A DNA stretch of 64,000 bases from a virus (IMGVR_UViG_3300011013_000009:13442-77441); one strand, 5' to 3'. Counted from the stretch's first letter, positions 1,978-55,737 are shown. The notes: generated from the sequence alone by a model not told the origin. Translations and numbers: made by a program.

Positions 1978-2086
1978 TTATCCAGGTGCGGGTTGGCTGC
2001 GTTAAACCTATTTTCTTAGCACGGATAGATTTTTTGCTATATAGGTGGTCTTTATTAGAATATACTGCGTATATACTTTCTGGTAC

Positions 2087-2094
2087 ATATTTAT
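2087..2094 (+). promoter_or_regulatory. Putative late promoter motif ATATTTAT
   Basis: Recurrent intergenic octamer; ATG lies 5 nt downstream. Confidence 0.65.
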
Positions 2095-2099
2095 ATTAA

Positions 2100-2561
2100 A
2101 TGATAAAACTAAAGTCTATATTAACCGAACAATCAACCCCTACGGTAGTATTTGTTTCTGGATTAACTAAGTATGAATCAGTCGACGCACAGGGCAACCG
2201 AATACAAAGCGGTATGCCCGGATTCCAAGTTATAACATTTCATTATAAAGACAAAGAAAAAATTATAAAATATCTAAAAGATAACAATGTACAAGCTCTT
2301 ATATTATATAGTAAGTCTTGTGAATACTGGAAGACATATAAACCATATATTAATAATATTTTTTGCATTGAGCCATGGAATGGAAGTAATAAGATGGTAT
2401 CTAGATACTCAGGGTTTCCTGCTGATAATATGTGGGTCGGCCCAGAAGATTATAGAGGGAATGGATTAAAAACTAATAATGATATAGTGCCCGGCAAAGG
2501 AACTCGGGGACATATCGAAGCCTTATCGGTTGTTTCTCTATTAATAGCTAGGAAAATATAA
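2100..2561 (+). CDS. MIKLK-leader protein, alpha/beta-hydrolase-like
   Basis: MIKLKSILTE leader; VVFVSGL, LILYSKS nucleophile-elbow-like segment, C-terminal His (GHIEAL). Confidence 0.6.
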   Translation: MIKLKSILTEQSTPTVVFVSGLTKYESVDAQGNRIQSGMPGFQVITFHYKDKEKIIKYLKDNNVQALILYSKSCEYWKTYKPYINNIFCIEPWNGSNKMVSRYSGFPADNMWVGPEDYRGNGLKTNNDIVPGKGTRGHIEALSVVSLLIARKI

Positions 2562-2650
2562 TGATAAAACTAAAGTCTATATTAAACGAAATAGGAGATG
2601 CCTTGGTTGCTCCTTATATAACAATATCCATTCCTAGGCTTGGAGATTAG
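2561..2650 (+). CDS. 29-aa MIKLK-leader mini-ORF or truncated remnant (not in ORF track)
   Basis: MIKLKSILNEIGDALVAPYITISIPRLGD*; TAATG overlap; first 30 nt are 29/30 identical to 2100-2129. Confidence 0.6.
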   Translation: MIKLKSILNEIGDALVAPYITISIPRLGD

Positions 2651-2733
2651 TGTATGGCCTGAAGTTTACCTGAAAGGGCGTACTTATAAGCGTACTAACG
2701 TACTACGCTATATTTATTATAAAAAGTCTCCAT

Positions 2734-2844
2734 ATGGATAACGCAGGCGATATATTGATGGAAATACAAATAATATGCCTCACTATATTTATGTGGAAAT
2801 TGTATAGGTATATACTATATAAAGAAGGTAAAGAAAATGATTAA
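2734..2844 (+). CDS. 36-aa putative membrane peptide (not in ORF track)
   Basis: MDNAGDILMEIQIICLTIFMWKLYRYILYKEGKEND; ATATTTAT at 2710-2717 upstream. Confidence 0.45.
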   Translation: MDNAGDILMEIQIICLTIFMWKLYRYILYKEGKEND

Positions 2845-3484
2845 ATTAAAAGATTTATTAAAAGAGCAAAATTCATTTTTCGAACCAATTACGGGAATAG
2901 GATCACCAAAAGCTGGTACCAAGGCTGGTTCTGCATTTGTTAAAGCTGGAGAAAAAGCTGCAGATTTTGCAATAGCACGTAGTAAGGATAAGGATATCAA
3001 CGTAATAACTGATTCTGAATTTCGCGCAGCCATGACAAAATTAGCTAATACGTGGAATCCTATACGAAATCAATATAAAGGTAAAACTGTAAACTTTTAT
3101 AAAATAGGTACAGATGAATTGCTAGGCAATTTTAAAATAGAGAATATCATAGTTAAATATTATGCCGGCAAAGAAGAGTTAGCGCCATATGTAGTTGTAA
3201 GATTATCAGGAGAACATAAAGGAACTGCTTATGCATATGAGCAAGATTTAAAAAGGAATATGTTTAAAGTAGGAAAATCTAAATTAGGTACTTATATGCC
3301 AGAAGCTCCATTAATGAATAAAGAGTTAACTAAAAGTATTTTATCAAAATGGCCTGCTATCGATCGTATTGCTGGAGAATTATCTAATATAAAAGAGAAA
3401 CAAAGAGTACCAGATGCAGATTTTACAGCTGCTATAGATTCTGAATTAGGCAATGATGATATACAATCTACAAATATAGCTTAA
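2837..3484 (+). CDS. MIKLK-leader hypothetical protein
   Basis: MIKLKDLLKE leader. Confidence 0.8.
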   Translation: MIKLKDLLKEQNSFFEPITGIGSPKAGTKAGSAFVKAGEKAADFAIARSKDKDINVITDSEFRAAMTKLANTWNPIRNQYKGKTVNFYKIGTDELLGNFKIENIIVKYYAGKEELAPYVVVRLSGEHKGTAYAYEQDLKRNMFKVGKSKLGTYMPEAPLMNKELTKSILSKWPAIDRIAGELSNIKEKQRVPDADFTAAIDSELGNDDIQSTNIA

Positions 3485-3524
3485 ATTAAAAATAACGCAA
3501 TATTTATAATAAATTGGAAAAAAA

Positions 3525-3857
3525 ATGAAATTAAAAACATTACTAGAAGGATATGCTTGGGAAAGAAAAGATGGCCAACCATTACCAACATTAAATGATG
3601 TTCAGAAAGAGCATAATAAAAAAATATCTGAATCGCCTATACAATATAATCCAAATGATTATGAATCTGCAAAACCAAGTAATATTAATTCTCTCTTAGA
3701 GGATGCAGAAGAGGAATTGGAATCAGTAGTAAATAAATTGTCGACAGATAGTAATGTAAGTACTTCAGATAAGTTAGTTTATTTACAAAGTCTTAAAAAA
3801 ATAAATTATATATTAGATAGATTACAAAATAAAGATTTATCTGGATATTTTGAATAA
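3525..3857 (+). CDS. MKLK-leader hypothetical protein
   Basis: MKLKTLLE leader; ATATTTAT at 3500-3507. Confidence 0.8.
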   Translation: MKLKTLLEGYAWERKDGQPLPTLNDVQKEHNKKISESPIQYNPNDYESAKPSNINSLLEDAEEELESVVNKLSTDSNVSTSDKLVYLQSLKKINYILDRLQNKDLSGYFE

Positions 3858-3869
3858 AAGGAAGAAATA

Positions 3870-4214
3870 ATGGAAGACCCTACATTAATCGGAATATTGG
3901 TTACATTATTAGGAGCATTTGGTGTTAAAGAGATTTGGACCATATGGAAAAAGAAAATCGATATCCAAGGACAAAAAGATTTAATAACATTAAGTAAAGA
4001 ACATCAAATATTACATGGAGTTATAGAAGAGCAAAGAAATACAATTGAAGATATGACAAAAAGAATTGTATTGTTAGAAGATAAAATTGATCAATTAATC
4101 GAAGATAATAAAGATTGTGCTATTAAATTAGCTAGGATGGAAGAAAGATTAATATTATCAGCTAAACAAAGATCAACCAGAAAACAAAAATCAAAAAACG
4201 GTACATCAAAATGA
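3870..4214 (+). CDS. Membrane-anchored coiled-coil protein (holin-like architecture)
   Basis: N-terminal hydrophobic helix, heptad coil, basic tail; AAGGA upstream. Confidence 0.6.
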   Translation: MEDPTLIGILVTLLGAFGVKEIWTIWKKKIDIQGQKDLITLSKEHQILHGVIEEQRNTIEDMTKRIVLLEDKIDQLIEDNKDCAIKLARMEERLILSAKQRSTRKQKSKNGTSK

Positions 4215-4516
4215 TTAAGCTAAAGAATTTATTAAAAGAAAAATATTCACACGAAGATTGGAAATCTGGCGCTACCGGAGAAATGTCTGGATATTATTTA
4301 ATGAAACAATTAAATGATTTAGCACACGATGCCGAAAGATCAGAAGAGCATGATTTAGCAGATGCATATGAATGGTTACATGGTAGAATAAATCAATCTT
4401 ATAGAGATATTGATCTTAATATAGTAGATATACAAGATTTATTAAATGAACCTGCGGGCAGAAAACATTGGAATAATTTGCCAATTGAATATTTGGAAGA
4501 TTTATTTAATTTTTAA
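4211..4516 (+). CDS. MIKLK-leader hypothetical protein
   Basis: MIKLKNLLKE leader. Confidence 0.8.
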   Translation: MIKLKNLLKEKYSHEDWKSGATGEMSGYYLMKQLNDLAHDAERSEEHDLADAYEWLHGRINQSYRDIDLNIVDIQDLLNEPAGRKHWNNLPIEYLEDLFNF

Positions 4517-4518
4517 TT

Positions 4519-5028
4519 ATGATTAAATTAAAAGATATATTATCAGAAGCATTGCCAGATGTTCCTATGACAATGGGATTTCGTAAACACGAAAATTATG
4601 AAGATCAAATCGTAGAACAATTTTTAAGATTTTATCAAAATGATGGCGGAAATAAAACCGGAAGATTTATTGATATGGCATCGCAACTAGTTGATACATA
4701 TGGGGCGGAAGCAGTACAACAAAATTTAGAACGAATTGACGACTTATCAAATCAAATTAACGAATTAATAAAACCAATTTATAAAGGTGCTGGACATAGT
4801 GTAAAAACTCCATTAGATTCTGGAGCAAATGCAACTATATGGAAATATCTAGATGATGCACATGAAACAGTAAATGAAATAATAAATAATAGTACATTTA
4901 ATGGATGGCCAATAGATACGGTTATAGCCGAACTAGATGGTTTATATAATACATTAGACGAACTAAAAATGATATATACAACCAATTACGGCCCAGAACC
5001 TGAAAAAAGACAGGTAGGAATGGTATGA
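4519..5028 (+). CDS. MIKLK-leader hypothetical protein
   Basis: MIKLKDILSE leader. Confidence 0.8.
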   Translation: MIKLKDILSEALPDVPMTMGFRKHENYEDQIVEQFLRFYQNDGGNKTGRFIDMASQLVDTYGAEAVQQNLERIDDLSNQINELIKPIYKGAGHSVKTPLDSGANATIWKYLDDAHETVNEIINNSTFNGWPIDTVIAELDGLYNTLDELKMIYTTNYGPEPEKRQVGMV

Positions 5029-5465
5029 TTAAATTGAAAGACATATTACCTGAAGCACTTCGAGATTATGATTCAAATAACATAGATCTCCCAGCAAATG
5101 AATTTAATTTAAAAGATTTAACATTTGATGATGTGTTAGGTAACTTCCCTGGAGAGTATAAAACCCAACAATTTACAAGAATGCAACCAAATGGACAAGA
5201 AGGACCATATTATAGAGACGGAGTATCATTTCCTAAAGTAGGTGATGGTATGACTACAATAGGCGATTTGAAATCCTTCGAAGGTTGGAAAAAAGAGTTC
5301 TTAACTAAATTTGGAGAAACAATAATTTTATTAGACCCAGACGCAGAATGGTTTGATAAGGTTAAAATAAAAAATGATAAATTCAATCAACAATCCACTG
5401 CTAGTTCTAAAGCAATTTCAAAATATTACACAGATAAACCATCAGGTGGTTTTACTGGTGATTAG
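5025..5465 (+). CDS. MIKLK-leader hypothetical protein
   Basis: MIKLKDILPE leader; ATGA overlap with the previous gene. Confidence 0.8.
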   Translation: MIKLKDILPEALRDYDSNNIDLPANEFNLKDLTFDDVLGNFPGEYKTQQFTRMQPNGQEGPYYRDGVSFPKVGDGMTTIGDLKSFEGWKKEFLTKFGETIILLDPDAEWFDKVKIKNDKFNQQSTASSKAISKYYTDKPSGGFTGD

Positions 5466-5467
5466 CC

Positions 5468-5608
5468 ATGCCCCACTATAAACTTCTTAAAAATTCATTT
5501 ACGATCATTTGTGGAAAATGTGATCATGAATGGAACAGGAAAAGAATGCCCGTTACGGCTACATGTCCTAAATGTAAACATAAAGCAAAAATTAAATCTA
5601 GATTATAG
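5468..5608 (+). CDS. 46-aa zinc-ribbon protein (not in ORF track)
   Basis: MPHYKLLKNSFTIICGKCDHEW...TCPKCKHK; CxxC...CxxC. Confidence 0.7.
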   Translation: MPHYKLLKNSFTIICGKCDHEWNRKRMPVTATCPKCKHKAKIKSRL

Positions 5609-5627
5609 TTAGTTATATTTATATAAA

Positions 5628-6485
5628 ATGATAAAGCTCAAAAACATATTATTAAATGAACAACAAACTAAAACAGTAAAGGGAGTTGAATATTGGAGAA
5701 AAAGTGAAGGTGAACCATGGCAAGCAATAGATAAATGTGTTAAAGGTAATTGTCATCATGGAGAAGGAGAAACTATTGGAGAAGATGGATCATTTATTGG
5801 CGAATTCAAGAATGGTAAACGATGGAAAGGAATTTTGACAGGACCAAACGGAGATCAAATATATGTTAATGGTAAAGCTGAAATACTTAGAGAACCAGAA
5901 GAAAAATCAGGAGGATTTTTATCAGTTGCGTTAAACAGTATAATGCCCACTGATTATTTTAATTTATTACCAGTTAATGCAAAAGCTTGGGTAAAAGATT
6001 TAGTAGGAATTAAAAAAACAATTACTTCGAAAGATTTTTCAGTTAATGATTTATTAGTATTAATTGAAATTGTTAAACGATTAAAAAAAGAAGGAAGAGT
6101 AGCAATACAATATTATGATTATAATAAGATGCTTAGGGATAATAAAATAAAAATCCAAAAGCAAGGAATTGAGAAGAGTTTTGAAGATTCAATAGCAGGT
6201 TCAATATATAGATTACGAACAACGTTAGGACGGGCTCGAATAGGCACAAATTCAGAAGGACAAACAGTTATTGTAGATACATTTGATTTTAATAATGTCC
6301 TCTCCGGAGAGGGTAGTAGCGCTAGTTCTAAAAAAAGACAACAAGAAAAAATAATCCAACAAATTTTAAATAATCCTACAGATCTTAGTTATGATAAAGC
6401 AAGAAGGATATCTGGTGCATTTGGTTCTGCAGACGGTGAAGGAGCTTATGTTTATATTAATCTAGGAGATGAAGCAGATATATGA
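5628..6485 (+). CDS. MIKLK-leader protein with MORN-like repeats
   Basis: MIKLKNILLNE; CVKGNCHHGEG...FIGEFKNGKRWKG; ATATTTAT at 5615-5622. Confidence 0.7.
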   Translation: MIKLKNILLNEQQTKTVKGVEYWRKSEGEPWQAIDKCVKGNCHHGEGETIGEDGSFIGEFKNGKRWKGILTGPNGDQIYVNGKAEILREPEEKSGGFLSVALNSIMPTDYFNLLPVNAKAWVKDLVGIKKTITSKDFSVNDLLVLIEIVKRLKKEGRVAIQYYDYNKMLRDNKIKIQKQGIEKSFEDSIAGSIYRLRTTLGRARIGTNSEGQTVIVDTFDFNNVLSGEGSSASSKKRQQEKIIQQILNNPTDLSYDKARRISGAFGSADGEGAYVYINLGDEADI

Positions 6486-6757
6486 TTAAACTAGAAAACA
6501 TATTAAAAAGTATTCCAAATCAAGAAATAGTTGAATCTGAATTAGGACAATGGGAATATCCTGGTAGAATAACAAGAATACCAAGTAATACTATAACAAT
6601 GCAACCCGATCCTAGAACAGGTAAGCCTATAGAACATATATTATTAATAATAGGAGACCAAAGCGGAGAAAAAAAGATAGGAATTCCAGGAGGACCTAAT
6701 TTATTTTTTCCAACAGATACATCAGTTACTGAATATCCTATTAAAAGGCATATGTAA
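6482..6757 (+). CDS. MIKL-leader small protein
   Basis: MIKLENILKS; GQWEYPG..TRIPSNTITM...VTEYP module. Confidence 0.75.
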   Translation: MIKLENILKSIPNQEIVESELGQWEYPGRITRIPSNTITMQPDPRTGKPIEHILLIIGDQSGEKKIGIPGGPNLFFPTDTSVTEYPIKRHM

Positions 6758-6780
6758 CATATTTATATAAAAAGGATATT

Positions 6781-6957
6781 ATGAGTAAAAAACAATTAAA
6801 CGAATGGAATGATGATTCATTTAAAAAATTACCTAAGCGATGGACTAAACATTATAATAAACCTGATGGAACTGGTTTAACAGAGTTTGAGAAAAAGGGC
6901 GGCAAAGATATTCCAAAGAAGAAAACAAAAAACAACCCCAAAAAATTTAAATGGTAA
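6781..6957 (+). CDS. 58-aa basic protein (not in ORF track)
   Basis: MSKKQLNEWNDDSFKKLPKRW...; ATATTTAT at 6759-6766 and AAGGA upstream. Confidence 0.7.
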   Translation: MSKKQLNEWNDDSFKKLPKRWTKHYNKPDGTGLTEFEKKGGKDIPKKKTKNNPKKFKW

Positions 6958-6961
6958 AATT

Positions 6962-7966
6962 ATGAAAAAGAAACAATTATTAAAAGAAAGATTTCAACAA
7001 TTAGCTGGATTAAAAGAAATTAAAATTTTAAATGAAGAAATTCATCCACCAAAAGAATTAGCAAATGATCTAGAAAAATGGATTGGTAATTTCGAAGCAA
7101 TTCCATTTGGATCGGGCCAAGTAAATTCTGTAAGAATTACTGATCCTGTTGATACAAGCAGTAGAGATATTTTACGCATCGATGGAAATGAAAAAGATGC
7201 ATATTATGTAATTTGGCCAGGTAAAGATTTCCCAAAAGATCCGGCATTAGATAGTTATTTTACATCTACTCCTGATAATACATATAAACAACCACACGAA
7301 AAAATAAAAGCAGCAAATGCATTTGTATTAGTAGGCCCGAAAGTACAAAAAATATTAAGCCATGTATCTGCGTTATTAGGACCCAGCGAAGAAGAGGAAG
7401 AAGAACCAAGAGCATCGTGGTGTAAGCGAAATTTAAATTCAGATTGGTATTTTGATAAATTAATGAATGGATTAGGATATTTAAAAGTTGGTGATTGTGG
7501 TGATGCTGTAGAAATAGCACAAGAGCATATGAATGAATTTTTACAAAAAGATTCGGGTAACTCAGCTAATATAGTTCCTTTAAATGTAGATGGTAAGTAT
7601 GGGCCAAAAACAAAAGCTGAAGTTCAAAGAGTACAAAAAGCAATAAATACTAAACCAGATGGATATTACGGTAAAAAAACTCACGATGCACTTATAAAAT
7701 TAATTAAATCTATGACAACTATAGTTAACGAACCTGAAGTAATAGATAAAATGGATATTCGTGACCCGAATAATGTTTTAGGTAAAAACAAGCCTGAACC
7801 AATTAAATTACAAACATTAGCTCCAGTAACATCAGCTGATGATTCTGAGTTTAAAGAAAAAACAAGAAAAAAATTATTTAAACGTAAAAACAAGAAATCT
7901 AAAAAATCTAAATCAACGCCGATATATGATATACCAAAAATGAAAAATAAAACATATGGTTTATAA
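6962..7966 (+). CDS. Peptidoglycan-binding-domain protein (start moved from 6887 to ATG 6962)
   Basis: MKKKQLLKERFQQLAGL start; LKVGDCGDAV...VDGKYGPKT...PDGYYGKKT is PG_binding_1-like. Confidence 0.75.
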   Translation: MKKKQLLKERFQQLAGLKEIKILNEEIHPPKELANDLEKWIGNFEAIPFGSGQVNSVRITDPVDTSSRDILRIDGNEKDAYYVIWPGKDFPKDPALDSYFTSTPDNTYKQPHEKIKAANAFVLVGPKVQKILSHVSALLGPSEEEEEEPRASWCKRNLNSDWYFDKLMNGLGYLKVGDCGDAVEIAQEHMNEFLQKDSGNSANIVPLNVDGKYGPKTKAEVQRVQKAINTKPDGYYGKKTHDALIKLIKSMTTIVNEPEVIDKMDIRDPNNVLGKNKPEPIKLQTLAPVTSADDSEFKEKTRKKLFKRKNKKSKKSKSTPIYDIPKMKNKTYGL

Positions 7967-8180: not shown

Positions 8181-8948
8181 ATGAGTGAAAAATATTTAAG
8201 AAATATTATAAGAAATCAATTATTAGCTGTCTTAAATGAACAAGAAATTGAAACTTCTCCTTTCACAGCAGCTGAAGAAAAGTTTTTAGCAAAATTTGCT
8301 GAACTAGGAACTACCTCATTGGGTATAATCTATTCGCCAAATGAAGTTGGAGTGCGTGAATTTATCGGAAGAAGTGGGAAAGAACTAAATTTAACACCAA
8401 ATGTATTAGCAAAGCTTCTTAAAGACAAAATAATTAGCATTATTCCATATGGAGGATATGGAAGGAATGACGATTATACATTACAGTGCAACCTTCCACT
8501 TGATCAATTAGAAGGAATGAACTCAGGAACAGCAGAAGATGGTGGAGCTGATGGAGCTGAAGGAGCTGAAGCACCACCACCAGAAGGAGATTTACCTGAA
8601 CCCCCGGAGGTTCCCGCAGGTCCGCCTGAAGAATCTGCAAGATCAAGCAAGGATATATCGAAATTATTGGTTTCTGAAGCAAAAAAATCAAAAAAAAAGT
8701 CCAAAAGTAAGGTTCATACCAAGAAAGCAAGGACATTAGGTCGATTACCTGGTGGTTATGTGGTATATCTAGAACGAATTATTGAAATTTTAGGTCAAAA
8801 ATTGCATACTTCATTAGAGAAAGAACATTTGGTGGCTGATATACTTGATAATTTAGCTCATAATTTTGGTTTAACGCCACAACAAGTATATAAATCATTT
8901 ATTTTTTATAGATCTCAAAATAGATTACAAAATGTTATTAAAAAATAA
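8181..8948 (+). CDS. Putative virion/head protein with Pro/Glu-rich linker
   Basis: MSEKYLRNIIRNQLLAVLNE start; ATATTTAT at 8168-8175. Confidence 0.7.
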   Translation: MSEKYLRNIIRNQLLAVLNEQEIETSPFTAAEEKFLAKFAELGTTSLGIIYSPNEVGVREFIGRSGKELNLTPNVLAKLLKDKIISIIPYGGYGRNDDYTLQCNLPLDQLEGMNSGTAEDGGADGAEGAEAPPPEGDLPEPPEVPAGPPEESARSSKDISKLLVSEAKKSKKKSKSKVHTKKARTLGRLPGGYVVYLERIIEILGQKLHTSLEKEHLVADILDNLAHNFGLTPQQVYKSFIFYRSQNRLQNVIKK

Positions 8949-23739: not shown

Positions 23740-26700
23740 ATGATATCACAATATTCAAATATCGATGAAATTTTAAATGCGGACCAATCACTATCTGGTT
23801 TGCGTTTATCAAAAAAACAATCGGATTTGTTATCATTTCCATTAGACAAACGTATTGATTTTGCTAATATTAATCCATCTCAAGAAAATTTATTAGAATT
23901 TCATGTATATGCAAATGATACATGGATAACCGGAAATCATACTTTACCGGTAACTAATGAATCAGCTACATTTACCAATACAGCTACTAATGAATCTATA
24001 CAATTAAATGGCGTTCCTGTTAATATTAATTTATTTCAACAACTTGACAATTTAAAATTAACTGCAGGAAATTATAGATTTGTAATTAATTTCTTTGAAA
24101 ATTTAATTGGTAGTTATGCATTACAGTACTTAAAAGTCGATGAAATATCTCCAGATAGAACAGAGGTACGGTTAAAAGCAATTGATAAAAAAAATTCACA
24201 GTTTTTAATACAAATTAATAATTATATTAACAGCGTTAATCAAACTGCAACTCCTGGCGGATTTGCTAAAACGTATTTATTGAATTTTAGTAGAAATCAA
24301 ACATTTCAATATGTTAATAGTGTTGTTATTGGCGAATTTTTATATGTAAAATTATTGAATCCGCTTCCTGATACAATTGAAGAACAATTTAAATGTTGGG
24401 TTGTACAAGAAAACAAATATCCATATATTGATAATGTAGTTATTTATTCCCAATCAGGCGTTTCTCCTGTTAATATATTATCTGGTCCTAATTGGCAAGC
24501 AAATAATCAAGGCTTTAATATTTCATCAGAAACTAATTTAAAAACATGGAATGATTTATTAGGTTCTTCTACTCAAACATCTCAAGAAATTGTAGACGCA
24601 CATTTTTCTGGTAGTTTATCTGGTATGTCATTAAATATCGATTATACTGATTTTAATAATTTTATATTTTATAGTTCAGCTACAGAAAGATTAGCTAATT
24701 ACAGATATAAATTAGATTTATTAGAATATTATATTGCACAATCATCATCCGCTGCAGAATTATCTGGATCTGTAGCAGTAACTAATGCTACAGATTATGA
24801 TAAATTAAAAACAAATTTAATTGGAGGATTTGATAAATTTGAGCAATTTTTATATTATGAATCTTCGTCTGGATTATTTAGTAATGAAATTCCGTTAGAA
24901 AATCCTAATGTTAGTTATGTAACAGGAAGTTATATCACACCATCTCCTAAATCTAATTCAACGTTGCCATATACTTTATATTCAATTACTAGTAGTCAAT
25001 TTGAAACGTGGTATAATGGTTTATATGATAGTGCATCTATTTATGACAATCGAAATTTAAATTTATTAACAAAGTCCGTACCAGAATTTATATTGTTAGA
25101 TGAAAATAATTCTCAATTATCTACATTTGTTAATATGTTAGGTCAACATTATGATATATTATATACATATATTAATGCAATGACTCGTATAAACAAAAGA
25201 GATGAACATCCTAAATTAGGAATGCCTAATGAATTATTATATGATGTAGCAAAACAATTTGGATGGAATTTACAAGACGGAAATCAAAATAAAAATTTAT
25301 GGGAATATACATTAGGTACTGATGAATCTGGAACGCCTTTAACTGGTTCTAATTCTATTAGCGGAACTTCAATGCCAGCACAAGATATGACATATAACAT
25401 ATGGAGACGTATTGTTAATAATATTCCAGGGTTATTAAAGTCAAAAGGAACTAAGCGTAGTATACAAGCGTTATTGGCTTGTTACGGCGTACCACAATCA
25501 TTAATTACTATAAAAGAATATGGCGGTCCTAGATTAGAAAGACCTCCTATATATGAACAATTGAATTTTGATTATGCATTAGATTTAATTACAAATCCTG
25601 CAGGTACAGTGACAGTTAATTATGATCAACCAATCGATGGAGTAGAATTGAGATTTAGAACCGATAATATTTTAACTAATCCTACAATGTCAAGTACAAT
25701 GAATTTATATAATGTAGGTAGTAATTCAGTAACTATTGATTTTTCTTCTGGTACAAAAGGTACTATTCAAATTAATGGAACTAGTTCAGCTGCATTCGAA
25801 TGTTTCAATGGAGATTGGGTAAATACAATATTAAGAAGTGGTAGTAATGGCACATTAGAAATCGTTGCAAAAAAATCTAAATACGGAAAAATTGTTTCAT
25901 CAGTTTCTGCATCTGCTACAGCAAGTTTACCTGCATCTGGTACTGTTACCTTAGGTAGTACTAGTACCGGCGCTACTAGATTAGAAGGCCAATTACAAGA
26001 ACTTAGATTATGGACTGGAAGTTTATTAGATGATCCTATGGAAAATCATACAAAAGCACCTGCGGCATATGATGGTAATGTAGATGCATATGATGAATTA
26101 GTATTTAGAGTTCCATTAACACAAAAAATTGATCATTCTATAACATCAAGTTTATCTGGCGTCGAGCCGAATCCTTCCGGAATATCTGCTTCATTTGCAA
26201 GTTGGACAAATGATACTCCATATGATTCTATAGAAGAAATGTATTATTATGATGGTATATCATTAGGAGCAGGAACGTTTGATGATAATAAGATACGGTT
26301 AGAATCAAATGAATTAGTAGGAACATTAGATTTTCTTACGAGAGCAGAAAGAAGTCAGTTTGATAGGGCTCCATTAGATAGCAAAAAATTAGGTGTATAT
26401 TATTCTCCACAAACAATGATTAATGAAGACATTATTGCACAATTAGGATTTCAAAGTTTAGATGATTATATAGGAGATCCTGGAGATCAAAATAGTCGTT
26501 CATATCCTGATTTAATTAGAGTAGCTACAGACTATTGGAAAAAATATACACAAAAGAATGATATTAATGCATATATAAAAATATTTTCTTTATTTGATTT
26601 ATCATTCTTTAAACAATTAGAGCAATTATTGCCAGCTCGTGTTGATAAAATAACTGGATTATTAATACAACCAAATTTATTAGAACGTAGCAAAGATACA

Positions 26701-49675: not shown

Positions 49676-50530
49676 ATGAAAAAATTAAAACATTCTAAAT
49701 ATAAGAATACGGCAATGTTATTCGAAATTTTAGTAAGGAAATTAACATCCGAATCATTGACTTCAGATAAGTCAGTGACAATTGATATAATTAAAAAGTA
49801 TTTTGGAAAGAACACTGAGCTGTCAAAAGAACTACAATTATATAATTCATTAATAAAAGAACAATTTAAGTCAGAAGCGAGAGCATTAGATTTTATTAGG
49901 TCTTGTAAAGAGACTCACAATAAATTAAATAAATCTTTAATTAAAAGACAACGGTATAACTTAGTAAAAGAAATATCAGAAAATTTTATTTTTGATAAAA
50001 TGTCAAAAATTAGGATTAATAATTATAAACAAATTGCTTCAATATATAAATTATTTGAATATAATGAATCACACAATCCTAAACAAATTTTAGAATGTAA
50101 AGATGTAATTATAGAACATATATTAATTAAAGACACAAGTAATTCAAAGAAAAATACTATATTAGAATCATTTAAAAATCAACATAAAGATGTTCGATTA
50201 TTAACATATAAATTATTAGTTGATAAATTTAATAAAAAATATTCTGGTTTAAATGAAGCACAAAAGGATTTGCTTAATCATTATATTACTCACGTTAATG
50301 ATACTGAGTCTTTAAAGGAATATATCCACAAAGTTATTCCTGTTATTAAAAAACAATTAAAAGAACATGTTAAATTAATAGATGACAAAGTGACAAAAAT
50401 TAAAGTAGACAAATTATCAGAAATGCTTTGTAATGTTGAAACAATTAAAACTATTAAAGAATCTCATGTATTATCATTATTAAGATATTTTGATTTAATT
50501 AAAGAATTAAAAGAGGTAAATATAAAATGA
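49676..50530 (+). CDS. Conserved head-module hypothetical protein
   Basis: Between portal and protease; late motif at 49645. Confidence 0.7.
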   Translation: MKKLKHSKYKNTAMLFEILVRKLTSESLTSDKSVTIDIIKKYFGKNTELSKELQLYNSLIKEQFKSEARALDFIRSCKETHNKLNKSLIKRQRYNLVKEISENFIFDKMSKIRINNYKQIASIYKLFEYNESHNPKQILECKDVIIEHILIKDTSNSKKNTILESFKNQHKDVRLLTYKLLVDKFNKKYSGLNEAQKDLLNHYITHVNDTESLKEYIHKVIPVIKKQLKEHVKLIDDKVTKIKVDKLSEMLCNVETIKTIKESHVLSLLRYFDLIKELKEVNIK

Positions 50531-51093
50531 AATCTTTTTTAAATGAAATGGAAAAAAAGTTTAAAACTGTTAATGAAGCAGAGCTTTGCGAAGAATGTGG
50601 TATGCATGAATGTAAATGTGTAGCTGAAGCTGACATTGTAGTTAATGATCCTAAAGACATTGATACAGTAAAAAAAGAATTAGATCCAGAAGATAGATTA
50701 GTGGTAGAAGATGAATTAGAAGAAATTTCTACATCTGGAGGAGCTGGCTCATATATGACTCCAAATGCATTTGGTAAAAAGAAAAAGAACTATAAGTGGG
50801 CATCTGTTTCAGAAGCAATGGATAAAAAATATGAAAAATTAATTGAATCATATTCTAAATTTGCAATGGGTAAAGGCTCAAAAGCATCACCATCCAGAAC
50901 AGTAAATACCACTATTAGGGAAGTAGCTAAAAAATTACAAGAGATTGAGCAATTAATAAATTATACAGGTAGATTAAAAAATGAATCAGGAATGACACGG
51001 GCTGAATATGGAAAGTCTACTAACACAGCATTAAATAAGATTTCAGAACGATTATTAAAGATTTCTGAACGTGTAAGAAGATTAGGAGAATAA
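50527..51093 (+). CDS. Putative prohead core protein
   Basis: MKSFLNE start, many hydrophobic-x-E sites, CEECGMHECKC. Confidence 0.55.
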   Translation: MKSFLNEMEKKFKTVNEAELCEECGMHECKCVAEADIVVNDPKDIDTVKKELDPEDRLVVEDELEEISTSGGAGSYMTPNAFGKKKKNYKWASVSEAMDKKYEKLIESYSKFAMGKGSKASPSRTVNTTIREVAKKLQEIEQLINYTGRLKNESGMTRAEYGKSTNTALNKISERLLKISERVRRLGE

Positions 51094-51094
51094 T

Positions 51095-51718
51095 ATGTCT
51101 AAAGCTTTATTAGTAGAATATATGCCATTTAAACCTATCTCTCCATTAACTGAATCAGATGGAGCAAAATTCGGAGTACCTGGTGGAATGGTAGTTCAAG
51201 GGGTATTACAAAGAGCTGGAGCAAAAAACCAGAATGGGAGAATATACCCAAAACACATTTTAGCAAGAGAATGTGTAAGATATCAAAAAGAGTATATAGA
51301 TCAACATAGGGCATTAGGAGAATTAGATCACCCAGAATCATCAATTGTTAATTTAAATAATGTATCTCATAATGTTTTAAAAATATGGTGGGATGGTGAT
51401 AATCTTAAAGGAGCAGTACAAGTATTAGATACTCCCGCAGGAAATATATTAAAATCACTATTTAAATCAGGGATAACATTGGGGATATCTAGTAGGGGTT
51501 TAGGAAGTGTAAAAGAATTATATAAAGAATCAGCAGTTGAAGTTCAAGAAGACTTTGAATTAATATGTTGGGACTTTGTATCTAATCCGTCGACAACAGG
51601 AGCATTTATGCAACCAATGTTTGAGTCGACAAATAAAATGAATGTAATAAACAAATATGGCAGAGTAAATGAAATTATAACTTCAATACTTTGTGATGAT
51701 GGAAAATGTAGGATATAA
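51095..51718 (+). CDS. Prohead protease (T4 gp21-like)
   Basis: NQNGRIYP, ALGELDHP, VSH, GISSRGLGS, DFVSNPS. Confidence 0.95.
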   Translation: MSKALLVEYMPFKPISPLTESDGAKFGVPGGMVVQGVLQRAGAKNQNGRIYPKHILARECVRYQKEYIDQHRALGELDHPESSIVNLNNVSHNVLKIWWDGDNLKGAVQVLDTPAGNILKSLFKSGITLGISSRGLGSVKELYKESAVEVQEDFELICWDFVSNPSTTGAFMQPMFESTNKMNVINKYGRVNEIITSILCDDGKCRI

Positions 51719-51720
51719 AT

Positions 51721-52086
51721 ATGAATATTAAAGCATTAATGGAAGCGTTAGAAAGCGAACCTGTACAAGTAACCAAAGAACAAAAAAAGGCCTTTATGGA
51801 AGCAGTTCGTGGATTTTCTCAACTAGGAGAAGGCGTATATGGAAAAACTAATTTAAAAGAATTGTGTGAAAAAGTAAAATATATGGTTGAAACAGCAAAC
51901 CAAGTAACTTTAGCAGAAGGAGATTGGTTTGATGGAATGACTGTTAATAGAAACATGAAAGAAATAGCAAATTCATATAAAGTATTTGAAAAGACAGCAC
52001 AAGAAATGTCAGTATTAAGAGAAAGATTTGAAGCAGCGTTTGAAGATATTGGAAGAGGATTAAATCGATATTTTGAAATGGATTAA
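51721..52086 (+). CDS. Head-module hypothetical protein
   Basis: MNIKALMEALE start; TAGGA upstream. Confidence 0.7.
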   Translation: MNIKALMEALESEPVQVTKEQKKAFMEAVRGFSQLGEGVYGKTNLKELCEKVKYMVETANQVTLAEGDWFDGMTVNRNMKEIANSYKVFEKTAQEMSVLRERFEAAFEDIGRGLNRYFEMD

Positions 52087-52545: not shown

Positions 52546-52803
52546 ATGAACAAAAAACAAAGAATGAGTAAAAAACAAAAACAACACCTATCAATAGCCC
52601 CAGGCCATGGAATTGGCGCTAAAGTCGTAGAAAAAGATATTAACTTTGCATTAAGGATTTGGAAAAGAAAATTAAAAGAATCCGATGTTTTAGTAAACTT
52701 AAAAGAAGGAAGAGAGTTTTTAAAACCAAGTGTAAAGAAAAGAAAACAAAAAATCGATGCAATATATACCCAAAAAATAAAAGACTTGCACGCAGACGAT
52801 TAG
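52546..52803 (+). CDS. rpsU: Phage-encoded ribosomal protein bS21
   Basis: DINFALRIWKRKLKESDVLVNLKEGREFLKPSVKKR is the bS21 signature; extended basic N terminus. Confidence 0.9.
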   Translation: MNKKQRMSKKQKQHLSIAPGHGIGAKVVEKDINFALRIWKRKLKESDVLVNLKEGREFLKPSVKKRKQKIDAIYTQKIKDLHADD

Positions 52804-52981: not shown

Positions 52982-54070
52982 ATGGCAAAATCAGATTTGC
53001 TAAAAGAAGCGATTGCGGACGCTAAGGCTGTTAAAGAAACTGCATTAGCAAACGCAAAAATTGCATTAGAAGAAGCTTTTGCTCCAAGGATTCAATCAAT
53101 GTTAACAACTAAATTAGCTGAAGACGAAATGTACGAAGACGAAATGTACGAAGACGAAATGCTAGATATAGCTGAAGAAGAACCAGATGTAGACCCAATG
53201 GCTATGGAAGGCGAAATGGACTTAGAAGCTGAATTAGGTGGAGAAGCTCCAATGGATGATCTAGGTGCCGCAGGCATGGAAGATGATCTAGGCGCTGAAG
53301 CAGGCATGGAAGATGATCTAGGTGCCGCAGAAGGACCAGCATCAGTAAATATCGACGGAGTAGAATATGCTCCTGTTGGCGGTGACGACACAAGTGTTGA
53401 AGCAGATGCTGAAGAAATGGCACCACCTGTTGATGATATGGAACTTGAATCTATTATTAGAGAGCTAGAAGAAGACTTAAATGAAGAAGATAATTTAGAC
53501 GCAGTAGATGCAGAAATTGAAGTTAATGAAGGAGTCACAGGGGCTGAAGCATTAGCACCAGAAGACGAAAACTTGTCTGAAGACTTTAACATCGATGAAA
53601 TTATCGAATCTATTTTATCTGAAGAAGAAGATGCAGAAGCACCAAAAGACGAAGCAGATGCAGAATTAGATGAAGGTGAATATAAAGAAGAGCTTGAAGA
53701 AGCTTATAACACGATTCATTCACTTCGACACACAATCAATGAAGTCAATCTTTTAAATGCAAAGCTCCTTTACACTAACAAATTATTTAGGAACTTCGAG
53801 CTTAATGAAAATCAAAAAATGAAAGTAATTGAAAATTTTGATAGAGCTGGAACAACTAGAGAAGTAAAATTAGTGTTTAGTACATTAGCAGAAAGTTTCA
53901 CTGTGCCTGTTAAAAAGCGCAAAATGGTAAAAGAAAACAAAGCTTCAAAGAGCTATGCTTCTAGACCATCTGGAACTACTGCACCGAGCAAGAAAACGAA
54001 ACAAATTATTAACGAAGGAAATGAATTAGCTAATAGATGGAAGAAATTAGCTGGTTTATTGCCTAACTAA
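52982..54070 (+). CDS. Prohead core/scaffolding protein (gp22-like)
   Basis: Highly acidic, directly upstream of the capsid gene; many L/I-x-E sites; ends RWKKLAGL. Confidence 0.85.
   Translation: MAKSDLLKEAIADAKAVKETALANAKIALEEAFAPRIQSMLTTKLAEDEMYEDEMYEDEMLDIAEEEPDVDPMAMEGEMDLEAELGGEAPMDDLGAAGMEDDLGAEAGMEDDLGAAEGPASVNIDGVEYAPVGGDDTSVEADAEEMAPPVDDMELESIIRELEEDLNEEDNLDAVDAEIEVNEGVTGAEALAPEDENLSEDFNIDEIIESILSEEEDAEAPKDEADAELDEGEYKEELEEAYNTIHSLRHTINEVNLLNAKLLYTNKLFRNFELNENQKMKVIENFDRAGTTREVKLVFSTLAESFTVPVKKRKMVKENKASKSYASRPSGTTAPSKKTKQIINEGNELANRWKKLAGLLPN
53120..53161 (+). repeat. 15-nt tandem repeat (EDEMY) in scaffold
   Basis: GAAGACGAAATGTAC x2.8; further MEDDLGA repeats at about 53252-53335. 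Confidence 0.9.
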
Positions 54071-54087: not shown

Positions 54088-55737
54088 ATGAATATATCAT
54101 CATTATTAGAAGATAATAATCCGTCCCAAAGAAATCAAGCTAAAGGTTTGGTATCAAAATGGGAAAGAACAGGATTATTAGAAGGCCTAAAAAATGAAAC
54201 CGAGCGAGCAGGTATGGCACAACTTCTTGAAAACCAAGCTAGACAGTTGGTAAGAGAAGCGTCAGGTACCGGTACCGCAGAGGGATCAGAAGAATGGGCA
54301 GGGGTAGCTCTTCCATTGGTAAGAAGAATTTTTGCAGAATTTGCTGCTAAAGAATTCGTTTCTGTACAACCAATGAATCTACCATCAGGTCTAGTATTTT
54401 ACTTAGACTTTAAATATGGAACAGCACAACCTGGATTTGAAACATCAAATGCTGGTACGAACAATCCATTGAAATTTGGTTCTCCAAATGCCAATAACTC
54501 GATGTTCGGTGTTACTTCTGATGCAGGCGATCCAACTGGTGGTCTTTATGGCGCTGGTAGATTTGCTTATTCTATTAACGAAGTAGTCCAAGGAGGCACT
54601 GCTACAATAGCAAATGCTACTTCAGCATCAGTTAACTATGATAGTTCATTTACAGATGTAGCAAATTTTGCTACTTTGTATCAAGTAATATCATTCCCAA
54701 CATCATCATTAACTAGATTTGATAACACAGCTGTTAGATCATTTGTATTATCAACAGGTTCGGCAGGTACATTTACTAGTTATCCAGCATTTACTAGAAT
54801 CAATGGCGGAAATATTGATTTTGTTGTAACAGGTTCAGGAGCAGTATTAGCTGCTGGTGGATATACTTGTTCATATAGTCAACAGCCAACAGATGTAACT
54901 AGAGGTGATTTCGAAGATTCAGATCCATTTAAAGGTTCTGGTACCGGTACTGGTATTGACGATGGAACAGATATTGATATTCCTGAAGTGAATCTTGAAA
55001 TGCAATCAGATCCAATCGTTGCTAAGACTAGAAAGTTAAAGGCTGTTTGGACACCTGAATTTGCTCAAGATTTAAATGCATATCACTCAATTGACGCTGA
55101 AGCTGAATTAACTTCAATGTTAAGTGAATATGTATCGATGGAAATCGATCTTGAAATATTAGATATGCTTATCAATGGCGCAGTTACTACTGAGTTCTGG
55201 TCTGCAGAGTCTAATAAATTCTATAATGCAGCAACTAATACTTTTGATACAAAAGGTGCTGGAGCTGGTGGATATTATAATACTCAAGGAGAATGGTTCC
55301 AAACTCTTGGTACTAAACTTCAAAAAGTATCTAATACAATTCACCAAAAGACACTAAGAGGTGGAGCGAATTTCTTAGTTACTAGTCCTGCTGTTGCAAC
55401 TATCCTTGAATCTATTCCTGGATTTGCTGCTGACACAGATGGTGACAAAATGGAATTTGCCGCTGGTGTTCAAAAAATTGGTGCTATGAATAATAGATAC
55501 ACAGTTTATAAGAACCCATACATGAAAGAAAACGTAATCCTTATGGGATACAGAGGAGCACAGTTCCTTGAAACTGGAGCAGTTTATTCTCCATACGTTC
55601 CACTTATCATGACTCCATTAGTGTACGATCCTGTAAACTTCACTCCTAGAAAAGGGGTTATGACTCGTTATGCGAAGAAAATCGTAAGACCTGAGTTCTA
55701 TGGTAAAGTTTATGTAGCTGGATTAAATACTCTTTAA
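54088..55737 (+). CDS. Major capsid protein (T4 gp23-like)
   Basis: LPLVRR, VQPMNLPSGLVF, AKTRKLKAVWTPEFAQDL.A.H.IDAEAEL, YSPYVPL, PRKGVMTRY. Confidence 0.97.
   Translation: MNISSLLEDNNPSQRNQAKGLVSKWERTGLLEGLKNETERAGMAQLLENQARQLVREASGTGTAEGSEEWAGVALPLVRRIFAEFAAKEFVSVQPMNLPSGLVFYLDFKYGTAQPGFETSNAGTNNPLKFGSPNANNSMFGVTSDAGDPTGGLYGAGRFAYSINEVVQGGTATIANATSASVNYDSSFTDVANFATLYQVISFPTSSLTRFDNTAVRSFVLSTGSAGTFTSYPAFTRINGGNIDFVVTGSGAVLAAGGYTCSYSQQPTDVTRGDFEDSDPFKGSGTGTGIDDGTDIDIPEVNLEMQSDPIVAKTRKLKAVWTPEFAQDLNAYHSIDAEAELTSMLSEYVSMEIDLEILDMLINGAVTTEFWSAESNKFYNAATNTFDTKGAGAGGYYNTQGEWFQTLGTKLQKVSNTIHQKTLRGGANFLVTSPAVATILESIPGFAADTDGDKMEFAAGVQKIGAMNNRYTVYKNPYMKENVILMGYRGAQFLETGAVYSPYVPLIMTPLVYDPVNFTPRKGVMTRYAKKIVRPEFYGKVYVAGLNTL

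Follow-up and report, generated by a model that had tools for sequence, protein, structure and literature searches.

A changeable array of unrelated proteins behind a putative T4-type capsid-targeting leader in an uncultured marine phage

What purpose might be served by a row of phage proteins that have nothing in common but their first ten residues? The question is raised by an uncultured marine T4-like phage in which eight full-length open reading frames (ORFs) between positions 2100 and 6757 begin with the leader MIKLKxLLxE, and a ninth copy, at 2561, heads a remnant of 29 codons. An earlier note on this DNA had read the array as capsid cargo addressed by its leader, and here we assess that proposal using the window (the whole stretch of DNA analysed, 64,000 nucleotides, to which all coordinates refer) and related sequences from other viral contigs. 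Identical proteins are also encoded on a 163-kb contig.

An array of unrelated proteins with a shared leader

The leader motif was absent from every other ORF start, both in the 64-kb window and in the whole 77,441-base contig, its matches being confined to one 4.7-kb stretch (the chance of 8 of 107 genes falling inside 11 consecutive genes is approximately 5 × 10−8). At the DNA level, a degenerate pattern for the first eight codons matched eight times in the window, always within the array and on the + strand, and gave no match in any of 100 shuffled sequences. The canonical leader starts the ORFs at 2100, 2837, 4211, 4519, 5025 and 5628, whereas the leader at 3525 is a variant without Ile2 and that at 6482 has residues 1–8 but not Glu10, its next I-x-E ending at residue 18; an N-terminal leader of about ten residues ending in L/I-x-E was found in seven of the eight intact genes, 6482 being the exception. 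All nine leader ORFs counted by the earlier note begin where it placed them, but the N terminus at 2561 is similar to that of a leader protein of 154 aa on a different contig (L161:2599-3060, E = 1.5 × 10−4), which identifies 2561 as a gene remnant and brings the tally to eight intact genes and one remnant instead of nine genes. The array and its surroundings comprise the following features.

2088-2095, + strand: promoter-like motif TATTTATA, 4 nt ahead of the first array gene
2100-2561, + strand: leader gene 1, 153 aa, with a small alpha/beta-hydrolase-like body (homologues, AF2 model, fold match)
2561-2650, + strand: leader-gene remnant of 29 codons, with no frame in the next 190 nt or so
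2837-3484, + strand: leader gene, 215 aa, basic, without a known family (Pfam/PHROG search)
3525-3857, + strand: leader gene, Ile2-less variant, 110 aa, acidic, with TATTTATA at 3501
3870-4214, + strand: gene without leader inside the array, with an N-terminal hydrophobic segment and a coiled coil
4211-4516, + strand: leader gene, 101 aa, acidic
4519-5028, + strand: leader gene, 169 aa, acidic
5025-5465, + strand: leader gene, 146 aa, acidic
5468-5608, + strand: Cys-rich 46-aa gene without leader, retained in syntenic relatives
5628-6485, + strand: leader gene, 285 aa, with one additional residue ahead of Glu and TATTTATA at 5616
6482-6757, + strand: leader gene, 91 aa, Glu10 missing, a variant shared by orthologues in three contigs (L238, L239 and L241)
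6781-6957, + strand: 58-aa gene whose worn leader closes with L-N-E at residue 8
6962-7966, + strand: peptidoglycan-binding-domain protein, 334 aa, with a Lys-rich leader variant (PF01471, E = 8.2 × 10−9)
8181-8948, + strand: tentative further member, whose leader is longer and of a different class, about 22 residues ending L-N-E-Q-E

The motif TATTTATA occurs in 23 copies on the + strand of the contig, against 4 of its reverse complement, and 19 of the copies are intergenic, 4–25 nt ahead of a start. It precedes three array genes and also structural genes, but the suggestion that the array lies behind late motifs was not supported. A late-specific signal was ruled out, as the motif is present too in the upstream small-gene region and showed no enrichment ahead of leader genes in other contigs; it is promoter-like and general to the phage group. 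A DNA search of positions 2000–7000 against cultured phages returned no match, and neither tRNA genes nor Rfam families were detected in the window.

That the bodies diverge completely behind the leader was borne out, with no Pfam or PHROG family in common and no mutual BLASTP matches; their isoelectric points lie at 4.5–4.8 for four and 8.4–9.3 for three. We consider it highly improbable that these genes are fast-diverging paralogues of a single ancestor, with the N terminus as the last conserved part. Their tandem arrangement would fit such an origin, as would the leaders at 2100 and 2561, which are near-identical over approximately 30 nt (one mismatch, in a stretch that includes 3 nt ahead of the ATG), but the bodies are unlike in length, charge and predicted fold, those in other contigs fall in unrelated Pfam families, and one body family was found with two different leaders. 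Homologues of the 3525 protein in three contigs (L182, L195 and L210) bear the canonical leader, the 4211 protein is 49% identical to a leader protein (L167:175-855), and the 6781 protein, with its worn leader, is 52% identical to a canonical-leader protein (L143:7674-8006). The 2837 protein has only two distinct homologues among 5.8 billion proteins. The 6962 protein carries, behind its Lys-rich leader variant, a copy of the C-terminal motif of the phage scaffold, and the N terminus at 8181 is conserved in L238, L239 and L241.

The product of 2100 had been called hydrolase-like, a label that has moderate support from homologue conservation, the AF2 model and fold comparison but no Pfam match. 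Nearly all of its 20 homologues retain the leader; Ser71 does not vary among them, and His138 hardly varies. In the model (pLDDT 83.5), residues 1–9 are unstructured (pLDDT < 50) and precede a confident domain, with Ser71 at the end of a strand (64–71) ahead of a helix (72–83). The best fold match is an esterase (5cml_B; Z = 10.4, r.m.s.d. 3.2, 140 residues aligned), in a tie of esterase/hydrolase matches with other flavodoxin-like folds; Foldseek against the PDB gave nothing at E ≤ 0.001, and the ESM Atlas gave generic flavodoxin-like neighbours only. The description of the 5628 product as MORN-like found no support in Pfam, where there was no match at E ≤ 0.1. The C-terminal part of this protein aligns with the end of phrog_7348 (1.8 × 10−11). 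Searches with the protein and its alignment found no relatives among viral contigs; metagenome contigs gave six loci, and an AF2 model built from six sequences was unusable (pLDDT 36). Among orthologues of 5628, some carry the MIKLK leader and others a 16-residue alternative that meets the body at the same I-L-N-E.

Peptide-level constraint on the leader

Codon and residue tallies were made on 138 distinct leaders from other contigs, collected with a pattern that allowed Phe at positions 4, 7 and 8. Five different codons are in use for Leu4 and six for Leu8, whereas Phe, though permitted, occurred 3, 2 and 0 times at positions 4, 7 and 8, respectively. Positions 4, 7, 8 and 10 are constrained, positions 6 and 9 are free, and no nucleotide consensus was found upstream of leader genes. 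The leader is conserved at the level of the peptide and not of the DNA. Its end, L/I-x-E, is the cut motif of gp21-type proteases. The capsid-targeting sequence (CTS) of T4 has 10 residues; targeting depends on positions 4 and 7, processing on 8 and 10, and the gp21 cut falls behind L/I-x-E (PMC9026906, PMC8442874). Judged by residue pattern, the leader corresponds to the T4 CTS in register, with hydrophobic residues at 4, 7 and 8 and Glu at 10.

These tallies also bear on whether the tag might act outside the capsid, as a boost to or timer of translation (through an AT-rich start, perhaps via a phage bS21) or as a signal for stability, degradation or localisation. The leader codons are indeed AT-rich, ribosomal protein bS21 is encoded in the head module of the phage, and some tagged enzymes in other contigs look cytoplasmic. 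Fixed amino acids behind varying codons, the avoidance of equally AT-rich Phe codons and the lack of an upstream consensus nevertheless argue against such a role, as do the protease motif at the end of the tag and its linkage to phages with an S77 protease and to head-module genes, and we regard it as quite improbable.

Head module, protease and leader genes in other viruses

The gp21-like protease that had been placed at 51095 was confirmed (PF03420, E = 6.6 × 10−31, spanning 51095-51715) and lies among head genes.

50527-51093, + strand: head-module protein, core candidate, with a 7-residue N-terminal stretch ending L-x-E (4.5% [LI]-x-E density)
51095-51718, + strand: S77 (gp21-type) prohead serine protease, the presumed processing enzyme (PF03420, E = 6.6 × 10−31; phrog_207, 1.5 × 10−54)
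51721-52086, + strand: head-core protein, orthologous to canonical-leader proteins (BLASTP E = 1 × 10−22 to 7 × 10−25)
52982-54070, + strand: acidic scaffold in a gp22-like position, with N-terminal L-K-E at residue 9 (4.6% cut-motif density)
54088-55737, + strand: gp23-type major capsid protein (PF07068, E = 1.4 × 10−76, match from residue 68)

As the earlier note had observed, head-gene N termini are alike: five consecutive ones, scaffold and capsid protein included, have 7–9 residues ending in L-x-E. The scaffold also has a conserved C-terminal motif, R-[FW]-x-x-L-A-G-L. With leaders removed, the 51721 protein is the orthologue of nine leader-bearing proteins (BLASTP), and its family comprises 884 clusters, with the leader in 42 of the best 150 representatives and many close variants besides. 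Relatives of the S77 protease have a conserved [IL]-x-E near residue 20; the protease's own Glu at residue 8, also considered as a conserved site, was rejected because it is Asp in many relatives. An uncontrolled complex prediction for the protease with residues 1–40 of the 4211 protein (score 0.00) counts neither for nor against the proposal.

Across viral contigs, the leader travels with the S77 protease, a gene for which was present in 20 of 39 leader-bearing IMG/VR records (mostly fragments 7–40% complete) and in all four of those at least 90% complete. Among 120 loci sampled, at least 167 distinct leader proteins were recovered, in at least 108 body clusters, with Pfam families that include ADP-ribosyltransferase (ADPrib_exo_Tox, one match), Zeta/AAA_33 kinase, NUDIX, HD, RNase_T, Mom and RimK. 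Three tagged proteins with H-[FY]-T had been guessed to be ADP-ribosyltransferases, a guess that found no Pfam support. Syntenic relatives carry different payloads, which, together with the 5628 orthologues bearing another leader and the one remnant copy, sustains the proposal of a modular, changeable locus.

A prohead propeptide need not imply delivery to a host, as tagged proteins might be accessory core or scaffold helpers that are lost, by degradation or expulsion, before the DNA is packaged. The best-conserved tagged family (51721) belongs to the head module, four array bodies are small and acidic, resembling scaffold pieces, and arrays in relatives sit between protease and scaffold (five consecutive leader genes in the complete 195-kb genome G043, and one leader gene each in L225 and L224). 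Internal [LI]-x-E density, however, is 0–2.5% in cargo bodies, at the background level (mean 1.5%), compared with 4.5–5.1% in four head-core candidates, three to four times denser, a contrast that matches the expectation for proteins cut once as opposed to proteins degraded. Enzyme families and a peptidoglycan-binding protein are also found among the tagged proteins, and payloads turn over rapidly among relatives, which is unusual in assembly factors; an assembly role is, in our view, unlikely.

A proposed capsid address

We consider that the decapeptide is probably a T4 CTS-type propeptide for capsid targeting and processing, with a different sequence and a large, changeable cargo set. The original proposal of a CTS-like address removed by a gp21-like protease is favoured by comparison (length and register, peptide-level conservation, co-occurrence with S77, leader genes placed between protease and scaffold in relatives, the orthology of head-module gene 51721 with leader-bearing proteins, and cut motifs at no more than background density in the cargo bodies), but not by sequence identity with the T4 CTS. 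From these likenesses we infer a course that runs from core binding and cleavage to head retention, injection and cargo function. The array proteins would be produced together with the head proteins, and the N-terminal tag, in which I2, K3, L4, K5, L/I7 and L8 are under constraint, would dock each protein onto the prohead's scaffold core while it assembles. Upon shell closure, the S77 protease (51095) would cut behind L8-x9-E10, and the freed body would be retained in the head beside the DNA, probably to exit with it at infection. Because such an address takes just 30 nt, cargo genes could be gained, swapped and lost, as expected of a tandem variable array. Against a T4-type address stand the acidity of four of the eight bodies (pI 4.5–4.8), where T4 internal proteins are basic, the tagged Mom, RimK and NUDIX proteins elsewhere, which are expected to act in the cell and not in the capsid, the missing Glu10 of 6482 and the lack of late-gene specificity in the promoter-like motif.

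A broader reading is possible, though we advance it with considerable reserve: sequence alone may reveal the capsid cargo of a large, abundant aquatic group of T4-like phages, in which hundreds of unrelated proteins, many of them enzymes or inhibitors acting on the host in the first seconds of infection, would each bear one of several interchangeable addresses for packaging and injection. The classes tentatively envisaged are the MIKLK decapeptide, the 16-residue alternative, which shares its cut site, and the C-terminal scaffold motif R-[FW]-x-x-L-A-G-L when copied to the N terminus.

Proteins injected with DNA act ahead of any phage gene expression, and among those of T4 are an anti-restriction protein and an enzyme that modifies RNA polymerase. 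If the tag addresses the capsid, a simple motif search could list the injected proteins of many uncultured aquatic phages and, given this early action and the T4 precedents, such a list would be a reasonable source of counter-defence and takeover functions. It would also follow that addressing as in T4 is an old and widespread principle, with a sequence that drifts and a register that stays, and that the tag could become a packaging handle for phages of Bacteroidota and cyanobacteria.

Comparison with known systems

The addressing principle is already known from T-even phages. Among the papers searchable here, none was found to mention this leader in a phage, or to describe the leader, its lineage or the size of its cargo set, and no virion proteome or N-terminal data were found for Flavobacterium phage immuto or Microcystis phage Mel-JY01, to which the lineage is related. 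Both of these cultured phages carry the leader, Mel-JY01 in exact form on three genes (at 60276, 60923 and 62733 of its genome) and immuto in a single near-exact copy (at 24569).

Propeptide-bearing ejection proteins have been described in the giant phages phiKZ, 201phi2-1 and SPN3US (PMC5694885, PMC7411985, PMC9026906), where many head-internal proteins are likewise cut after Glu by a diverged gp21 homologue. There, however, the propeptides are long and varied, with another short motif before the Glu cut site and no single common decapeptide.

In T4, the CTS is found on IPI, IPII, IPIII and Alt (Mullaney and Black 1996, reviewed in PMC9026906; PMC8442874). Both systems place 10-residue N-terminal leaders on unrelated proteins, with hydrophobic residues at 4, 7 and 8, Glu at 10 and an L/I-x-E end, and both encode an S77 protease homologue, with scaffold and protease also bearing such motifs. 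With the published CTS the leader shares no identical residues but Met1 and Glu10 (PMC8442874), the likeness being one of pattern; the protease and capsid proteins are distant (the capsid protein is approximately 28% identical to those of T4-like enterobacterial phages). T4 has four dispersed tagged genes, compared with 8–12 in one array here, and small, basic internal proteins, whereas half of the bodies here are acidic; several leader classes also appear to coexist in the present system, which is known from sequence only.

A further parallel is with the polymorphic internal-protein loci of T-even phages, which have a conserved CTS (Repoila et al. 1994, as cited in PMC3012670). Variable, unrelated genes retain only the leader in both cases, and both are interpreted as the outcome of an arms race with host defence. 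The present lineage, related to phages immuto and Mel-JY01, differs in using another leader and in having a far larger repertoire, with at least 108 body clusters in the 120 loci sampled.

The phage and its leader array

The window makes up most of a linear virus contig of about 30% G+C, and identical proteins are recorded from a 163-kb contig. Among cultured phages, Flavobacterium phage vB_FspM_immuto has the most similar capsid protein (57% identity), followed by Microcystis phage Mel-JY01 (55%); hundreds of IMG/VR contigs come closer than either, and identity to T4-like enterobacterial phages is about 28%. The gp21-like protease previously placed at 51095 was recovered as an S77 enzyme.

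Terminase and head genes of the phage
Large terminase: T4-type, encoded by the phage
gp20 portal: PF07230, 2.3e-65
51095, + strand: S77 prohead protease, PF03420, 6.6e-31
gp23 capsid protein: PF07068, 1.4e-76

The ORF listing and translation place a canonical N-terminal leader, MIKLKxLLxE, at 2100, 2837, 4211, 4519, 5025 and 5628 (+ strand; genes are named by start position), with variants lacking Ile2 (3525) or Glu at position 10 (6482). The nine ORFs described in the earlier note begin with the leader or a variant of it; one (2561) is a remnant, as judged from its short frame (29 codons, then about 190 nt without a frame), an N terminus similar to that of a full-length leader protein on a different contig (E 1.5e-4), and about 30 nt around and including the leader that are near-identical to 2100 (1 mismatch) between unrelated flanks. 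A degenerate search pattern covering leader codons 1–8 had 8 matches, all in the array (2100–6757), and 0 in 100 shuffles; the motif was found at no other gene start in the window or the 77,441-base contig, and the chance of such clustering among 107 genes is about 5e-8. The bodies behind the leader are indeed unrelated, with no common family by Pfam or PHROG. Three small genes among the array genes (3870, 5468 and 7969) have no leader. Just upstream, a G-rich island (1808–1990) in 30% G+C DNA contains nine or so G4–G7 runs on the + strand at a spacing of about 10 nt; no Rfam family matches it, and its predicted RNA fold is no more stable than those of shuffled sequences (z +0.94).

An IMG/VR scan with the back-translated leader yielded at least 120 loci (counts from the scan are lower bounds). 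Across these loci, 139 of the 143 leader matches start ORFs that are 40 or more codons long and 133 are the first ATG behind an in-frame stop (median six codons upstream), which marks the matches as gene starts. Codons vary freely across the 138 distinct leaders (five for Leu4, six for Leu8), with no conserved nucleotides upstream of their ATG; Phe, common in AT-rich DNA and permitted by the search pattern at positions 4, 7 and 8, occurs there only 3, 2 and 0 times. Positions 6 and 9 are free, and position 11 prefers Ala, Lys or Ser. On this codon and residue usage, the leader is best read as a peptide signal.

Putative promoters

On the contig, TATTTATA has 23 copies on the + strand versus 4 of its complement, and 19 copies are intergenic, 4–25 nt ahead of starts that include 2100, 3525, 5628, 6781, 8181 and portal and tail genes.

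ATATTTATA(T/A)AA, strand-specific: for example at window 2088, 3501, 5616, 6760, 8169, 47793, 49646 and 56154; 4–25 nt before 19 starts

With TATTTATA sites before both array and structural genes, the array seems to consist of at least three units under the control of the same putative element as the structural genes. In four cases ATATTTATA(T/A)AA lies just 4 nt ahead of the ATG; if it is a −10-like element, transcripts there would be leaderless or near-leaderless. The array had been described as lying behind late motifs, but TATTTATA also occurs three times in the small-gene region upstream and, in other loci, precedes 10.7% of tagged genes versus 12.9% of other ORFs, which rules it out as a late-specific signal.

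Leader genes and the head module

An S77 gene was found in 20 of the 39 leader-bearing records searched whole, most of which are 7–40% complete, and in all 4 of the 4 that are at least 90% complete. Relatives carry leader genes within the head module itself, in the stretch from protease to scaffold: one each in two loci (L224 and L225), and five in a row in a complete 195-kb genome (G043), which has eight altogether; another two complete genomes contain three apiece. In the window, the head-core gene 51721 lies directly behind the protease. Its N terminus is related to the leader but worn, and it is homologous to nine canonical-leader proteins with their leaders removed (E 1e-22 to 7e-25). Its family profile comprises 884 clusters at 50% identity; among the best 150 of the 884 representatives, 42 carry the leader, and near variants keeping basic-Leu-x-x-aliphatic-aliphatic-x-Glu occur in many others. 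The similar short starts noticed earlier in head genes extend to five consecutive ones (50527, protease, 51721, scaffold at 52982–54070 and capsid protein), whose N-terminal seven to nine residues end in L-x-E. In the protease, this residue-8 site is not the conserved one; a conserved [IL]-x-E lies near residue 20 (47 homologs; window 51095–51160), a candidate self-processing site comparable to that proposed at the T4 gp21 N terminus. That the tag instead affects translation or protein fate in the cell seems improbable, given these head-module links and conservation at the peptide level.

The phage also encodes a bS21 ribosomal protein (52546–52803; PF01165, 4.9e-8, above cut-off) between head-core genes and scaffold, and an RpsU is annotated at the equivalent position in Mel-JY01.

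Putative cargo bodies and exchanged leaders

The at least 167 distinct tagged proteins from the at least 120 loci form at least 108 BLASTP clusters. Most have no Pfam family; those assigned include ADPrib_exo_Tox, Zeta_toxin/AAA_33, NUDIX, HD, RNase_T, Mom and RimK, together with metallopeptidases and a cell-wall hydrolase. Gene 2100, earlier called hydrolase-like, belongs to a family of 20 homologs, nearly all tagged, in which Ser71 is invariant and His138 nearly so; in an AF2 model that is confident (pLDDT 83.5) save for residues 1–9, Ser71 sits at a strand–helix junction. Across the whole domain, its fold comes closest to esterases and further alpha/beta hydrolases (Z 10.4), which would fit that description, but generic flavodoxin-like folds tie with them.

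The internal density of [LI]-x-E, the cut motif of gp21-type proteases, is 0–2.5% in array bodies, with a mean of 1.5% in 67 other genes and 4.5–5.1% in 49676, 50527, 51721 and scaffold. Since T4 core proteins are cut at many sites and internal proteins at one (PMC9026906), the array bodies look like the class retained in the head. This density, along with the enzyme payloads, argues against tagged proteins being assembly helpers that are expelled, which we consider unlikely. The bodies are mixed in charge: four acidic and, of the eight tagged ones, three basic (pI 8.4–9.3), as are those of the variant-leader genes 6781 and 6962. Directly behind the leader, 3525 (3525–3857) and otherwise different proteins of L182, L195 and L210 have a W-x-R-K-x-G-x-P-L-P-T-L-type motif, possibly a further conserved element downstream of the putative cut site.

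Tagged homologs occur elsewhere for 3525, 4211 and 6781, the last with a worn leader of its own. Three syntenic loci (L238, L239 and L241) share the 5628-6482-6781 block and an 8181 homolog with the window, but their upstream tagged genes differ from its own, in line with the modular locus proposed earlier. In orthologs of 5628, the body is preceded by either this leader or, joined at the same I-L-N-E, an alternative of 16 residues; in one locus (L240:39-2244), the 16-residue leader ending I-L-N-E heads two adjacent unrelated genes, one of them the 5628 ortholog, indicating a swap of leaders on an unchanged body. This swap on one body family, and tagged bodies in unrelated families, make it very doubtful that tagged genes are diverged paralogs.

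Residues 114–280 of 5628 (5628–6485) match the extreme C terminus of PHROG 7348 (2392–2550 of 2564; 1.8e-11), a giant-protein family labelled endolysin. The 6962 protein has a peptidoglycan-binding domain and, behind a Lys-rich leader variant, a copy of the scaffold C-terminal motif (6962–7040). This motif, R-[FW]-K-K-L-A-G-[LI], ends the scaffold (53990–54067) and, in the loci compared, is C-terminal in 75 proteins, nearly all scaffold homologs, N-terminal in only four and internal in one. In the 6962 protein and two proteins of other phages it lies near the N terminus, each time followed by [LI]-x-E.

Comparison with T4

By sequence comparison, the basis of the whole case, the leader is probably a T4-type address: the tag would dock the tagged protein onto the prohead core, the S77 protease would cut it off behind Glu10, and the body would remain in the head. 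By extrapolation from T4, the cargo may be injected and may act against host defences. In the searchable literature, we found no description of this leader, no account of the immuto and Mel-JY01 lineage or of hundreds of uncultured aquatic phages using it, and no mention of 8–12 leader genes in tandem, leader arrays inside the head module, or several coexisting leader classes. T-even internal proteins are diverse and have only a capsid targeting sequence (CTS) in common, which has been suggested as a possible general protein-loading route of T4-like phages (PMC3012670, PMC9026906). The T4 CTS has ten residues (sequence in PMC8442874); its mutants assign residues 4 and 7 to targeting and 8 and 10 to processing, and gp21 cleaves after L/I-x-E (PMC9026906). 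The phage leader is of equal length and in the same register, whereas only Met1 and Glu10 are identical. The likeness is one of pattern, not homology: the leader probably works as the T4 CTS does but is not its sequence relative.
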